Shown here piece by piece: positions 15,191 through 29,368 of a stretch of 64,000 bases of DNA. The notes under the pieces are model-generated. The model saw nothing but the letters and a program-made list of their open reading frames with translations, was not told where the DNA came from and made no database searches. Numbering within the stretch: position 1 is the stretch's first letter; every line of letters begins with the position of its first letter. Both the position numbers and the translations under genes were made by a program. Source of the DNA: Alphaproteobacteria bacterium (GTDB lineage: Bacteria > Pseudomonadota > Alphaproteobacteria > CAAHEQ01 > UBA3637); assembly GCA_045614025.1 (NCBI GenBank), contig JAZLCE010000017.1:3875-67874 (forward strand). Direction: 5' to 3'.

Positions 15191-16735
15191 TTAGTTTCTT
15201 TCAAGTAAATTTAATCCGTTAAAAATCGCTTTAATGCTTGCTTTTGTTGTTGAGCGATCAATTGCTCTTGCAATAACAGATTTAGATTGATTTGAAATGG
15301 TTATTGTTGCTAATGCATCAGAGGCAGCTTTATCTTCTGGTGTCATCATTTGTTGCTCATATTTTGCCACTTCAATTGCCACGCCTAATGCCAAAAATGC
15401 ATTAATACAAGCATTAATAGGACCATTCCCTTCGCCGGTTTTTTCAAAGATTTCGTCTTCTTTTTTATAAGAAAGTAAAAATTTTCCATCTTTAATTCTA
15501 TCAAAAGAAGAAAGCTGATAAGGCCCTTTAATATCGCAAAGATGTGTACGATAAAGTTTATCTAAATCTTTTGGTTTTAATTCACTTCTTTTTTCTTCAG
15601 CCATTTTTTTTGCGAAGGGCATTAAATATTCTGCTTCTTGAAGAGTGATTGGATAACCTAAATTTTGGAAGTTAGAAAAAAGAGCTGATTTGCCAGATTG
15701 GCTTGTGAATCCAATATGTTCACCATCATATCTTCCAATGAGTTTTGGATCAAAAGCAATATATTGACCTTTTTTTAATCCTTTGGTTTTGTTAGATCCA
15801 TCTTGATGAATTCCACTACGATGAGCCAATACATCAGAACCAATAACAGGGGCTTTTTCATAAATTTTAATGCCAGACATTTCGCTAACAAGCAAAGAAG
15901 TTTCTTGAATTTTTTCCATTTTAAGTGGTATGTTTACATTTTTATTATAAAGTGCAACAGCAACTTCTTGCATATTTGTGTTTCCTGCGCGTTCACCAAG
16001 CCCGTTGATTGTTGTTTCAAGTTGGGTTGCTCCTGCAAAATAGCTCATAGCCGTTGTGGCGGTTGCCATGCCAAGATCATTATGGCAATGAACAGAAATA
16101 ATGGCTTTATCCCCAATTCGATTATGAACGGCTTTTACCATGTCAGTAAAATCAGTTGGTAAATATCTTTCAACGGTGTTTGGCAAATTAATAACATCTG
16201 CGCCAGCATCAACAACTTTTTCAATAGCATCTACTACATCTGGTAAATTTTCAATACAATCTCCAAAATGTTCTACTGAAAATTCAACTTCAGCCTGAGG
16301 AAGCAATTCTTTTGCTTTTTTAACGGCTTTGACCGCCATTTTTGTAACGGTTTGAATATCTTTTTTAAGGACATGTTCTAATCCCAAAGGATTCATAGCA
16401 ATAAAAGTATGAATGCGTGGTTTTTTTGCAAATTTAACAGCGCTAACAGCTTTTTCAATGTCTTTTTCATTGGCTCTGGCTAAAACGCTGATAACAGTGT
16501 TTTCTGGTGCACGTTTAGCAAGGGCTTCACAAGCAATAAAATCCATTTCATCTGAAGCCGGAAAGCCAATTTCAATTCCTTGAACACCCAATGCAACCAA
16601 TTTATCAAAGATCACTTCTTTTTCAGTTAAGCTCCATGGATTTTTAAGAGCTTGGTTTCCATCTCTTAAAGTGACATCATAAAAAAATGGTTGGCGGGAA
16701 TTATTTGCGGAATTTGAATTGATATTTGTTTTCAT
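15191..16735 (-). CDS. leuA: 2-isopropylmalate synthase
   Basis: FYDVTLRDGNQAL, HCHNDLGMATA, GLGERAGN motifs and a C-terminal LeuA-type regulatory domain. No other leu genes are adjacent. Confidence 0.85.
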   Translation of the reverse strand: MKTNINSNSANNSRQPFFYDVTLRDGNQALKNPWSLTEKEVIFDKLVALGVQGIEIGFPASDEMDFIACEALAKRAPENTVISVLARANEKDIEKAVSAVKFAKKPRIHTFIAMNPLGLEHVLKKDIQTVTKMAVKAVKKAKELLPQAEVEFSVEHFGDCIENLPDVVDAIEKVVDAGADVINLPNTVERYLPTDFTDMVKAVHNRIGDKAIISVHCHNDLGMATATTAMSYFAGATQLETTINGLGERAGNTNMQEVAVALYNKNVNIPLKMEKIQETSLLVSEMSGIKIYEKAPVIGSDVLAHRSGIHQDGSNKTKGLKKGQYIAFDPKLIGRYDGEHIGFTSQSGKSALFSNFQNLGYPITLQEAEYLMPFAKKMAEEKRSELKPKDLDKLYRTHLCDIKGPYQLSSFDRIKDGKFLLSYKKEDEIFEKTGEGNGPINACINAFLALGVAIEVAKYEQQMMTPEDKAASDALATITISNQSKSVIARAIDRSTTKASIKAIFNGLNLLERN

Positions 16736-16761
16736 GTGAAGTCCTTAATTTTATTTGAAGA

Positions 16762-16790
16762 TAAAAAAAACACCCTCCTAAAAGGGTGTT
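16762..16790 (-). terminator. Leader (attenuator) terminator 27 nt upstream of the leuA ATG
   Basis: Minus-strand RNA: ACACCCT-TTTAGG-AGGGTGT followed by T8, located between the leader ORF and the leuA SD. Confidence 0.7.
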
Positions 16791-16813
16791 TAGAATAAAT
16801 TATTTATATAACA

Positions 16814-16885
16814 CTACCCTCTTAGGAAATGCGATTCATGTCCTAACAATAAGTTTGATAAAAGAAGTAGAGTTACATTTTTCAT
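16814..16885 (-). CDS. Candidate leucine leader peptide (23 aa)
   Basis: Translates as MKNVTLLLLSNLLLGHESHFLRG*, with 8 Leu codons including 4 consecutive. Its stop lies inside AGGGTAGTGT, which can pair with the 5' arm of the terminator. Confidence 0.55.
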   Translation of the reverse strand: MKNVTLLLLSNLLLGHESHFLRG

Positions 16886-16921
16886 ATTTTATGAAATATC
16901 ATTTTTCCTAGTAAATGTCAA

Positions 16922-16956
16922 TAAAAAAATAATCCACCTTTAAAATGGCGGATTAT
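16922..16956 (-). terminator. Intrinsic terminator after parC
   Basis: ATAATCCGCC-loop-GGTGGATTAT (10 bp, one G-U) followed by T7 on the minus strand. Confidence 0.75.
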
Positions 16957-27082: not shown

Positions 27083-27446
27083 GTCAGATGATCGGATAAT
27101 CGCTGAAAGGAAACTTTTGGAGGAAAGTCCGGGCTTCACGGAAACACGATACTGGATAACGTCCAGCTGGGGTGACCCACGGGATAGCGCCATAGAAAAC
27201 AAACCGCCAATTTTTATTGGTAAGGGTGAAACGGCGGGGTAAGAGCCCACCGCATTTTAAGCAATTAAAATGGCACGGCAAGCCCTATCGGAAGCAAGAC
27301 CAAGTAAAGAGAGCCAAAGAGTAATCTTTGTTAAAATGAGCGTTTCTGATCTGCTCTCAAGAGGTAGGTCGCTAGAGGTAAGTAGTAATGCTTATCCAAG
27401 ACGAATGATTATCGATTACAAAACCCGGCTTATAGATTGTCTGACA
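27083..27446 (+). ncRNA. rnpB: RNase P RNA, bacterial type A
   Basis: Universally conserved GGAGGAAAGTCCGGGCT near the 5' end and ACAAAACCCGGCTTAT near the 3' end. P1 pairing is GTCAGA/TCTGAC. Ends are approximate (+/-5 nt). Confidence 0.9.
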
Positions 27447-27531
27447 TTTTTTTTAAAATTTTTTTTGTTTTTTTAAATTTTTTGCTTGCATTTATATTTT
27501 TTTTGGTGTATATAAATAACTACTTTATCAA

Positions 27532-27608
27532 CGGGGCGTAGCTCAGCCTGGTAGAGTACTTGGTTTGGGACCAAGGTGTCGCATGTTCGAATCATGTCGC
27601 CCCGACCA
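27532..27608 (+). tRNA. tRNA-Pro (anticodon UGG)
   Basis: Acceptor CGGGGCG/CGCCCCG, anticodon arm CTTGG-TTTGGGA-CCAAG, T-loop TTCGAAT, encoded CCA. Confidence 0.9.
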
Positions 27609-27669: not shown

Positions 27670-27764
27670 GCATGTTCGGACGGAGCAATAGCGACGTAAT
27701 GTCGAGCCTTGCGAGACAGCCCCTTGCGGGTGAGCGAAAGTGAATAATCATGTCGCCCCGACCA
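27670..27764 (+). pseudogene. Displaced, interrupted copy of the tRNA-Pro 3' half
   Basis: GCATGTTCG (27670-27678) and AATCATGTCGCCCCGACCA (27746-27764) are exact copies of 27581-27589 and 27590-27608. They are separated by a 67-nt GC-rich insert at the T-loop position. Confidence 0.7.
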
Positions 27765-27797
27765 AAAAAAGACGGACTTGTTCCGTCTTTTTTTTTA
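27764..27797. terminator. Bidirectional intrinsic terminator (ends trpB transcript)
   Basis: A7-GACGGA-CTTGT-TCCGTC-T10. Confidence 0.8.
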
Positions 27798-27827: not shown

Positions 27828-29006
27828 TCAAACCCTAAATTCTTTTGTGATAAAATCCAAATCTTTATCGCCTCGACCAGATAGATTTACCAAAATAATT
27901 TTGTCTTTTGATAAAGTAGGGGCAAGTTTTATAGCATGAGCAATGGCATGAGCACTTTCAAGCGCCGGAATTATACCTTCTGTTTTGGAAAGTGTATAAA
28001 AGGCATCTAACGCTTCTTTATCATCAATTAACACATATTTGGCTCTACCTATTTTGTGTAGATAGGCATGTTCTGGTCCAACGCTTGGATAATCTAACCC
28101 GCTTGCAATTGAGTAAACAGAGGCGGGGTTTTTGTTTTTATCTAATAAAACCAAAGATTTAAAACCTTGCATAATAGCTGTTTCTCCAAAATTAATAGAG
28201 GCGGAGTGTTCGCCGATTTTTGCTCCTTTTCCTAGGGGTTCAACGCCGATTAGTTCAACTGATTTATCATCAATAAATGAGCTAAAAATGCCAATGGCAT
28301 TTGATCCGCCACCAACACAAGCAATAATTTTATCAGGTAAGTGACCAGTCATTTCTATTATTTGATCTTTGGATTCTTGTCCAATCACAGATTGGTAATC
28401 TCTAACCATTAAAGGGAATGGATGGGGACCCAAGACTGAACCAATGCAATAAAGTGAATCATCAAGGTTGTTTAAATAAGATTCAAAAGCGCTATCAACA
28501 GCTTCTTTTAATGATTTTTGACCATCTGTAACAGGTATGATTTGGGCCCCCAGTAATTTCATACGAAGAACGTTTGGTTGTTGTTTTGCAATATCTGTTT
28601 CACCCATATGAACTTCGCATTTAAGACCCAAATAAGCTGCGGCTGTTGCCATAGCAACGCCATGTTGTCCTGCGCCAGTTTCGGCGATTAATTTTTTCTT
28701 TCCCATATATTTTGCTAACAGTGCTTCCCCAATTGCATGATTGAGTTTATGAGCACCGGTATGATTTAAATCTTCTCTTTTTAAATAGATTTGAGCGCCA
28801 CCGATTTTTTGGCTTAAATTTTTTGCAAACGTAATAGGAGTTGGTCTTCCTTGGTATGTTTTTCTGATATATTTTAGTTGATCAAGAAATGTTTGATTTG
28901 TTTTTAATTCGTAGTAGGCTTTTTCTATTTTATTCATTTCTTTTTTTAAATTTTCGGGGATGAAAGCGCCGCCAAATTCCCCAAAAAAACCATTAGATTT
29001 TTTCAT
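27828..29006 (-). CDS. trpB: Tryptophan synthase beta chain (no trpA adjacent)
   Basis: [14 protein letters not shown]-terminus, PLP-lysine region [10 protein letters not shown], and GGGSNAIG. Confidence 0.9.
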
Positions 29007-29090
29007 TAATTTTCCTTTTTTATTTATATGAATTTTATTGATTATTAACCGTTTTTGTATGGTTAGTCCGTTAAATATAAATGAGGTGCC

Positions 29091-29159
29091 TTAGCACCAC
29101 CACAAATTATGAGATGTTGAATATTTAAAAAAAGAAAATTGCATCGAAATGTTTTTCAT
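29091..29159 (-). CDS. Candidate tryptophan leader peptide (22 aa)
   Basis: Translates as MKNISMQFSFFKYSTSHNLWWC*, with tandem Trp codons two codons before the stop. Lies 85 nt upstream of trpB. No SD, and the ATG is about 9 nt after the -10 box. Confidence 0.45.
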   Translation of the reverse strand: MKNISMQFSFFKYSTSHNLWWC

Positions 29160-29168
29160 AGGTTTAAT

Positions 29169-29196
29169 TTTATAAGAATTAACAAATAAATGTCAA
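29169..29196 (-). promoter_or_regulatory. Sigma70-like promoter upstream of trp leader/trpB
   Basis: TTGACA-N16-TATAAA on the minus strand. Confidence 0.5.
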
Positions 29197-29259: not shown

Positions 29260-29288
29260 CAAAAAACCACTCGCAAAGAGTGGTTTTT
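29260..29288 (-). terminator. Intrinsic terminator after tRNA-Val
   Basis: Minus-strand AAAAACCACTC-TTTGC-GAGTGGTTTTTT. Confidence 0.8.
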
Positions 29289-29291
29289 CAT

Positions 29292-29368
29292 TGGTAGGCG
29301 ACTACGGATTCGAACCGCAGACCCCCTCGGTGTAAACGAGGTGCTCTAACCAGCTGAGCTAGTCGCCC
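29292..29368 (-). tRNA. tRNA-Val (anticodon UAC)
   Basis: The reverse complement reads GGGCGACTAGCTCAGCTGGTTAGAGCA-CCTCG-TTTACAC-CGAGG...GGTTCGAATCC..GTCGCCTACCA. Confidence 0.9.

Follow-up and report, generated by a model that had tools for sequence, protein, structure and literature searches.

The subject of this analysis is the leader of an orphan trpB gene, located on the minus strand of a 64,000-nt stretch of alphaproteobacterial DNA (the window; all coordinates are positions in it, and all features of the trpB leader lie on this strand). A short open reading frame (ORF) with two adjacent tryptophan (Trp) codons precedes the gene, and the leader very likely serves as a Trp-codon ribosome sensor that controls trpB. 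The reading we prefer, with modest confidence, is that of a self-contained leader acting in cis: the ribosome would signal how much charged tRNA-Trp is available and thereby set the expression of trpB, while the block in Trp-replete cells would be premature termination of transcription. Counted in its favour are the conserved ORF, a leaderless promoter geometry, a small hairpin (H1), a U-rich linker, a covarying pseudoknot, the Trp-free TrpB protein, the absence of other trp genes, the presence of rho, and the attenuators found upstream of another trpB (genome G078) and of leuA. The element very probably belongs to a known kind, namely ribosome-mediated control by a leader peptide; an effector composed of hairpin, U-rich linker and H-type pseudoknot was found neither in Rfam nor in the literature searched. 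A first-pass annotation of the window had listed the promoter, the tandem-Trp leader ORF, the hairpin, the U-rich tract and trpB, and all of these material points hold on the minus strand. It had missed the conserved pseudoknot 15 nt downstream of H1, which is the most unusual part of the leader.

The leader ORF and its orphan trpB

The sigma-70-type promoter (29167..29196) can be read in two ways. In reading A, TTGACA (29196-29191) is separated by a 16-nt spacer from TATAAA (29174-29169), and the ATG lies 9 nt further. In reading B, the spacer measures 18 nt, the -10 box is TAAAAT (29172-29167) and the ATG lies 7 nt further; the promoter scan score is 11/12. From the position of the promoter, transcription is predicted to start at the leader AUG or within ~3 nt of it. 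Judged by this geometry, the leader mRNA would be leaderless, with its 5' end on the AUG or directly beside it. The ORF itself, MKNISMQFSFFKYSTSHNLWWC* (29091..29159), comprises 22 codons and a TAA stop, with its ATG at 29159. Its terminal sense codons are UGG-UGG-UGC, which correspond to Trp20 (29102-29100), Trp21 (29099-29097) and Cys22 (29096-29094), followed by the stop codon at 29093-29091. The gap between this stop codon and the trpB ATG (29006) is 84 nt, and not 85 nt as first annotated.

Trp accounts for 0.8% of the residues in the long ORFs of the genome, and a genome-wide scan returned this leader as the sole intergenic mini-ORF with two adjacent Trp codons (WW) behind a consensus promoter. 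Together with its recurrence before 20 distinct trpB loci of the clade, the scarcity of Trp and the unique promoter placement indicate that the WW leader ORF exceeds chance.

These loci were obtained by comparing the leaders of eight other members of the genus, of G059 (from another order), of G078 (from a sister genus) and of 12 further proteins with 69-89% identity; after removal of duplicates, 20 distinct alphaproteobacterial leaders or loci remained. All 20 contain an ORF of 19-23 codons with Trp codons next to the stop, so the comparison of the trpB upstream regions supports the Trp-codon leader ORF noted in the window and shows it to be conserved. The frame ends in WWC* in 17 of them, in WWR* in G059, in WWWLS* in G078, and in YWC* in locus L241, where a second W is found four codons earlier. 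WW or WWW is thus present in 19 of the 20 lineages, and a single W beside Cys-stop in one. In several leaders, a third Trp codon lies 2-4 codons further upstream. The peptides have nothing in common in sequence except the start and these Trp codons. The length, by comparison, hardly varies while the sequence drifts: it equals 22 codons in half of the 20 leaders and lies between 20 and 23 codons in all leaders of the pseudoknot type.

The promoter geometry is shared as well. In 18 of the 20 cases, the -35 box resembles TTGAC(A/T) and the -10 box reads TAnnnT, the two are spaced by 16-18 nt, and 6-7 nt separate the end of the -10 box from the leader AUG, as the earlier suggestion of a leaderless mRNA implied; no Shine-Dalgarno (SD) sequence precedes the leader AUG at these 18 loci. 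For locus L236, the leader start was placed by hand at the second ATG. Outside the class the arrangement is rare: a WW mini-ORF was observed upstream of trpB at one of 79 non-alphaproteobacterial loci (60-65% identical), which came from a scan of the genome collection with the TrpB protein and are mostly trpB of Clostridia and Spirochaetota. A metagenome scan for TGGTGGTGCTRANGCACCW yielded only chance hits among the matches listed, and a search of 401 genomes of the class with covariance model R2 returned nothing beyond the window itself and a single chance match.

The genes around the unit of promoter, leader and trpB differ from contig to contig (L232-L244) and include those for a type IV secretion system coupling protein, flagellins, groEL, a metG-like gene and pilin genes. 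Because these flanking genes are unrelated, promoter, leader, pseudoknot and trpB are regarded as a self-sufficient module.

The gene at the end of this module, trpB (27828..29006), encodes a protein of 392 amino acids that matches TIGR00263 with 567 bits (cut-off 392). It contains the motif HTGAHK around the lysine that binds pyridoxal phosphate and belongs to the TrpB1 group. None of its 392 residues is Trp. The assembly measures 1.57 Mb, with 97% completeness and 33% G+C. No match to PF00290 (trpA), PF00218 (trpC), PF00425 (trpE) or PF00591 (trpD) was found in this 97%-complete genome, while each of these Pfam models finds its match in 14 of 14 control genomes. The trpB gene is a true orphan, as the first-pass annotation had supposed from the window and the genome-wide Pfam search confirms. 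An orphan trpB implies salvage of indole together with serine, and the earlier proposal of indole salvage is supported to that extent. Its comparison with obligate intracellular bacteria is not: the host belongs to a lineage of uncultured gut or rumen Alphaproteobacteria known from metagenome-assembled genomes (MAGs), and nothing points to an obligately intracellular life. The record of one genus member (L031) reads 'MAG: Alphaproteobacteria bacterium ... Roe_deer_Colon'.

The distribution of trpB is patchy: 9 of the 21 genus genomes carry the gene, and of the order's other 59 genomes just one does. The closest non-alphaproteobacterial TrpB relatives, 60-65% identical, come from gut Clostridia, Spirochaetota and Bacteroidales. 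The patchiness within the genus and the varied neighbours suggest repeated gain, loss or movement of the gene. Beside the intact trpB of G003, a 51-codon fragment (L029; G003:C9:7910-8062) is 67% identical to the C-terminus of TrpB. The fragment contains a TAA in frame and is probably the relic of a second trpB copy.

Hairpin H1, the U-rich linker and the pseudoknot

The end of the leader ORF is folded into H1 (GGUGC-UAAG-GCACC, 29085..29098), for which -7.4 kcal/mol is predicted. The 5' arm (29098-29094) consists of the last two nucleotides of the Trp21 codon and the Cys codon, the loop UAAG of the stop codon and one further nucleotide, and the 3' arm (29089-29085) of GCACC; the sequence 3' of H1 in the window reads TCATTTATATTTAAC. 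Across 18 lineages, the pattern GGUGC-N4(5)-GCACC is unchanged. In G059, the hairpin is GGCGC-UAG-GCGCC, in which the U-A pair has become C-G and the encoded Cys has become Arg. As this compensatory pair alters the encoded residue, the constraint acts on the RNA helix and not on the peptide.

H1 is followed by the U-rich linker UCAUUUAUAUUUAAC (29070..29084, 15 nt). Over the 18 lineages, the linker (the 12-20 nt that follow H1) contains 58% U and 27% A, compared to 52% A and 31% U in the 40 nt before trpB, and its U-richness is a conserved feature. The A-rich spacer further downstream (29007..29045) carries the trpB SD sequence AAGGA (29017-29013) and shows no conserved structure in RNAalifold, which predicts an open, A-rich ribosome-binding region.

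Between the linker and this spacer, a 24-nt H-type pseudoknot can be drawn (29046..29069). Its strands are S1a (GGA, 29069-29067), S2a (UAACC, 29065-29061), S1b (UAC, 29059-29057), an A-rich third loop L3 (29056-29051) and S2b (GGUUA, 29050-29046). Stem S1 is formed by GGN:NCC, and stem S2 pairs the loop of S1 with the segment beyond the A-rich third loop, so that the conserved block can be written as GGN-(0-4)-NNNCC-(0-1)-NCC-(3-8, A-rich)-GGNN. It was found in 18 lineages, at a distance from H1 of 12-21 nt (13-15 nt in most and 15 nt in the window). S1 has a G.A mismatch at its middle pair in the genome of the window.

Both stems are supported by covariation. For S1, a structure-blind MAFFT alignment was used. 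The covariation score amounts to 0.209, compared to 0.093 +/- 0.022 in shuffles, none of 500 reaching it, and to 0.02-0.10 for partners slid out of register; three of the four pairs show changes on both sides. The 3' strand of S2 shifts with the loop length, and its pairing therefore had to be tested sequence by sequence: each S1 loop from the blind alignment was paired with its own downstream segment and with those of the other sequences. Own pairs scored 10.5 and cross pairs 7.6 (permutation p ~5e-5). S2 reads AACC:GGUU in the genus, and AUCC:GGAU, GCC:GGC, GCCA:UGGC, UGAGCC:GGCUCA, UUGGCC:GGCUAA or UGAC:GUCA elsewhere. S2b was placed no better after realignment with a covariance model, which is why S2 was assessed by permutation and by a hand-fitted alignment. 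In the latter, changes on both sides are seen in 9 of the 10 pseudoknot pairs, a count that is biased towards pairing by the way the alignment was built. The pseudoknot potential of single sequences does not differ significantly from that of shuffles, and the support comes solely from the comparison across species.

The two genomes G002 and G018 differ in their ~90-nt spacer by three substitutions and one extra A, and two of these substitutions convert AGGU:ACCU into AGAU:AUCU. A DNA palindrome, GGTTAACC, was considered as an operator and rejected: it is not conserved, and the double change from G002 to G018 fits the RNA stem S1 instead. The leader of G059 (L010/L244, 1310-1465) has no pseudoknot; an A/U-rich palindromic hairpin, AAAGCUUU-GCAUAU-AAAGCUUU, is found there, followed by U-rich sequence.

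A small conserved pseudoknot may bring to mind a second sensor, that is, an aptamer or a protein site for indole, serine, free Trp or a regulator, so that trpB would need two signals. The H-type topology with its A-rich third loop indeed recalls riboswitch aptamers of the smallest size, for example preQ1-I, conservation and covariation of the fold extend over 18 lineages, the module must be self-sufficient in its differing neighbourhoods, and an indole signal would be sensible for an indole-salvage enzyme. However, ligand pockets contain invariant unpaired nucleotides, whereas no unpaired base of this pseudoknot is invariant and conservation is confined to the GG:CC cores of both stems. The leader matches no Rfam family (E <= 1 in the window and E <= 5 in seven relatives), neither an SD sequence nor a terminator is embedded in the pseudoknot, and S1 is mismatched in the window genome itself. 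A second sensor is therefore considered very improbable.

Two further leaders help to place this architecture. In G078 (L111, G078:C22, ~1240-1470), a different trpB (56% identity) is preceded by a leaderless Trp attenuator of textbook build. The ORF of this attenuator, MMEVTKNIFFLCQNWWWLS*, is followed by a 1:2 hairpin and U8. A 2:3 pairing (GGGAAGCCGCG:CGCGAGUUUCCC) is encoded, and at the position of the pseudoknot there is a strong 3:4 terminator, CCGCGAGUUUCCC-AAAAC-GGGAACAGCGG-U7.

The second leader lies in the window itself, where leuA is preceded by a classical leucine attenuator (16735-16930, minus strand) with a TTGACA promoter, an ORF, a terminator and the leuA ATG at 16735. The ORF, MKNVTLLLLSNLLLGHESHFLRG* (16885-16814), is adjacent to the promoter and contains seven Leu codons within a stretch of nine codons; the terminator is ACACCCU-UUUAGG-AGGGUGU with U8 (16789-16770). 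An upstream segment, GAGGGUAGUGUU, could act as antiterminator. The first-pass annotation had pointed to a second cognate-codon leader before leuA, and this proves to be a classical attenuator with a real terminator. As the organism uses leader-peptide control with real terminators, the terminator-less design before trpB is taken as a distinct variant and not as sloppy annotation.

From ribosome position to control of trpB

In the preferred reading, the position of the ribosome decides the fate of the leader. When Trp-tRNA is scarce, the ribosome would be parked while UGG occupies its A site; the mRNA channel would then enclose the 5' arm of H1, so that H1 could not form and the leader would stay occupied. 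When Trp is plentiful, the ribosome would terminate at the stop codon in the loop of H1 and depart, upon which H1 could refold and the leader RNA would be left naked. In such Trp-replete cells, transcripts would be stopped before trpB, at or after the structures formed by H1 and the pseudoknot, either intrinsically or with the assistance of Rho, and parked ribosomes would relieve this block. Candidate stops are pausing assisted by the pseudoknot or a hairpin together with Rho, or weak intrinsic termination; a rho gene is present in the genome.

The geometry of the first state can be specified. If UGG20 occupies the A site, the codon in the P site would begin at transcript nt 55. The footprint of a ribosome reaches ~+11 to +15 nt. 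As the 5' arm of H1 (nt 62-66) falls within this footprint, and hence inside the ribosome, H1 should be excluded during the stall.

The same footprints bear on the simplest alternative, in which H1 and the U-tract form a minimal intrinsic terminator that is occluded by a ribosome stalled at UGG-UGG, the pseudoknot being incidental. The terminator scan flags H1 as a G+C hairpin with a U-rich tract, the U-richness is conserved, and the 5' arm would sit in the channel of a ribosome whose A site is at UGG20. However, a ribosome at the stop codon needs mRNA up to ~nt 80 and polymerase covers the last ~14 nt, so that polymerase would by then have reached at least ~nt 95. This is at least ~18 nt past H1 and beyond the U-tract (nt 76-90), and no Trp-dependent window would remain. 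A ribosome that is closely coupled to polymerase would block H1 with or without Trp. H1 has a stem of 5 bp, and the onset of the U-run usually lies 2-6 nt beyond it. In G078, the equivalent hairpin with its U8 precedes the real terminator, and the covarying pseudoknot would be left unexplained. A minimal terminator of this kind is thus quite improbable. Earlier, the lack of a strong canonical terminator had been noted, which agrees with the 5-bp stem and the interrupted U-tract. The weak Trp-regulated terminator that had been put forward for H1 and the U-tract is unlikely on the ground of the footprints.

A classical three-helix switch is not encoded either, as RNAalifold retains just H1 and the small S1 helix. 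No conserved downstream partner for the GCACC strand was found, and a G+C stem with a U-run is absent directly before trpB, where the pseudoknot and the A-rich spacer are found instead. Since 2:3 and 3:4 pairings are not encoded, and in light of the arrangement in G078, H1 and the U-tract are read as homologous to the 1:2 pause and sensor hairpin of classical leaders. The pseudoknot is taken as the effector because it is located in the slot that the terminator occupies in related leaders. That the pseudoknot is a new expression platform replacing terminator and antiterminator, be it as a pseudoknot-stabilised pause or termination element whose read-out combines with ribosome occupancy or as a miniature aptamer with a second input such as indole, is unlikely.

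Several observations weigh against the preferred reading and should be set out together. The stability of H1 is low (-6.4 to -7.4 kcal/mol, compared to -10.6 for the leuA terminator and -13.1 for that of the upstream tRNA-Val gene), and the U-tract behind it sets in late and is interrupted. Given where polymerase would stand, H1 and the U-tract alone should not form a Trp-regulated terminator. A 2:3 hairpin between GCACC and S1a was rejected: it occurs in G002, G007, G006 and L236 only, with a mean z of -0.2 and 0.0 kcal/mol in the window. U-rich sequence after the pseudoknot is found in just 8 of 18 lineages, to which the window genome does not belong. A C>G skew as in Rho utilization (rut) sites is absent from the ORF (C 12.1% and G 11.8%). 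The sequence does not show how ribosome position would be relayed to the pseudoknot, and the preferred reading does not explain it.

The spacer shows only a slight C>G skew (C 16.6% and G 13.2%), and a boxA was not found in the leader. Two further routes were considered and dropped. The Trp codons could pair with the CCNCC strand of the pseudoknot in only 11 of 18 lineages by inspection. Frameshifting by +1 or -1 at hungry codons, into trpB or the pseudoknot, is unsupported because stop codons in the alternative frames are scattered.

Pairing between the leader ORF and the trpB SD was rejected: z is -3 in the window genome, but the mean z of the family against shuffles is -0.25. The ORF segment UUUUCUUUUUUU pairs with the SD region in the window genome and not across the family. 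In the window genome (29020-29140, minus strand) and its nearest relative, the ORF segment AAUUUUCUUUUUUUA can pair over 15 bp with the SD region UAAAAAAGGAAAAUU. The family as a whole does not share this pairing, which could be either an additional layer confined to the lineage or mere coincidence, given how A/U-rich the RNA is. Pairing of the U-rich linker or of GCACCU with the SD region likewise stays at the level of shuffles (mean z -0.1).

These results bear directly on post-transcriptional attenuation. In this alternative, transcription always reaches trpB, and in Trp-replete cells the folded unit of H1, linker and pseudoknot lowers translation or marks the mRNA for decay, for instance by RNase E or J acting from the 5' end or by Hfq at the hairpin and U-tract. 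Upon starvation, a ribosome on UGG-UGG and a second one queued behind it would cover most of the 60-nt ORF and protect or activate the mRNA. The constant ORF length matches two ribosome footprints, a canonical terminator is absent, and the dwell time and the folding of H1 would differ between the two states and outlast the departure of polymerase. Moreover, leaderless translational attenuators with short ORFs were shown experimentally in mycobacteria (bioRxiv 10.1101/834739), and the LEU element has been predicted to combine a leader with a pseudoknot (PMC1262725). However, pairing of the ORF with the SD is low only in the window genome and a few others, the linker does not pair with it, and the ribosome-binding region of trpB appears open. 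The UGG codons are unable to pair with a purine-rich SD, and a stalled ribosome would release GCACC to pair with it, which, counting G-type and C-type strands, has the wrong sign. We regard post-transcriptional attenuation as rather unlikely.

If the element is a Trp sensor, transcription termination as the controlled step comes near to an even call but stays a little below it. Occupancy-dependent translation or mRNA stability is ranked next and is held only tentatively. With respect to the mechanisms listed in the first-pass annotation (weak attenuator, Rho-dependent, translational), a weak attenuator at H1 is unlikely, the Rho-dependent option keeps its rho gene but lacks a rut-like skew in the ORF, and the pairing with the SD that a translational mechanism would use is not conserved.

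Surroundings, significance and known systems

Upstream of the promoter, a tRNA-Val(UAC) gene (29368-29292) ends in a strong terminator (29288-29261; stem -13.1 kcal/mol, then U6). Together they span 29261..29368 on the minus strand and insulate the trpB leader from upstream transcription. On the other side, RNase P RNA (class A, 293 bits; 27084-27448, plus strand) and tRNA-Pro(UGG) (27532-27608, plus strand) converge on the 3' end of trpB. A 13-bp hairpin lies in between (27764-27794), with A- and U-runs on both sides, and is probably a bidirectional terminator.

Leader-peptide attenuation is a textbook mechanism that is defined by competing hairpins and a terminator. A whole clade of gut Alphaproteobacteria, abundant though uncultured, would appear to have retained the Trp-codon sensor while swapping the effector for a small pseudoknot, and this raises the question of how the position of a ribosome can control a gene without an antiterminator. 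The findings also mark these gut bacteria with reduced genomes as likely Trp auxotrophs that would live on indole made by the microbiota, by means of a lone, Trp-free and tightly regulated TrpB, which bears on the cross-feeding of indole and Trp in the gut. Were indole such a second input, the indole-salvage gene would be expressed only at low Trp-tRNA and in the presence of indole. As the module is self-contained, measures ~190 nt and occurs in varied genomic contexts, it could easily be tested in reporter constructs.

Among the known systems, the E. coli trpL leader (RF00513) likewise places tandem UGG codons in the 5' arm of the first hairpin and the stop codon between its arms, followed by a U-rich pause region. 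Unlike in E. coli, no 2:3 or 3:4 pairing is present before the orphan trpB, the mRNA is predicted to be leaderless, and a single codon separates WW from the stop. The Rfam model Trp_leader (RF00513) matched neither the window (E <= 1) nor seven relatives (E <= 5). Of the features that define the trpL type, a tandem-Trp leader ORF before a Trp-synthesis gene is present, while mutually exclusive hairpins and an intrinsic terminator are lacking.

In the tnaC-type attenuation of the E. coli tna operon, which depends on Rho, free Trp is sensed via the nascent peptide and a catabolic gene is induced. As in tnaC, a ribosome held near the end of the leader would mask the RNA from Rho, a long untranslated spacer with pause sites follows, and rho is present. 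The difference lies in the stall, which would here occur at hungry UGG codons, and in the rut-like C>G skew and boxA, which were not found.

The actinobacterial LEU element and the mycobacterial polycysteine ORFs share with the trpB leader a cognate-codon ORF, which is often leaderless, and the lack of a terminator (PMC1262725; bioRxiv 10.1101/834739). In LEU, a pseudoknot is moreover located between the leader ORF and the SD (PMC1262725). In both of these systems the regulatory codons pair with the SD, which is impossible for UGG and was not found here, and the pseudoknot of the trpB leader, unlike that of LEU, lies ~40 nt from the SD. Pairing of codons or a relay with the SD, as it characterizes translational attenuators of the leaderless polycysteine, LEU and ermC type, is thus absent. 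Of the features of H-type pseudoknot riboswitches (preQ1-I, SAM-II), neither a covariance-model match nor invariant unpaired bases that could contact a ligand were observed.

The attenuator trpL (rnTrpL) before trpE(G) in Sinorhizobium meliloti and other Rhizobiales is a leaderless RNA (PMC6614838). It differs in its antiterminator SL2, its terminator SL3 with a U-stretch, and its trpE(G) target within a full pathway, whereas here a pseudoknot replaces the conserved antiterminator and canonical terminator, a lone trpB is served and the peptide (22 amino acids, WWC*) is unrelated to peTrpL. Both systems are nevertheless alphaproteobacterial, with an mRNA that begins at the AUG (here as predicted), consecutive Trp codons in the last part of the ORF, a first stem-loop that overlaps the ORF end, and a Trp-synthesis gene as the target in cis.

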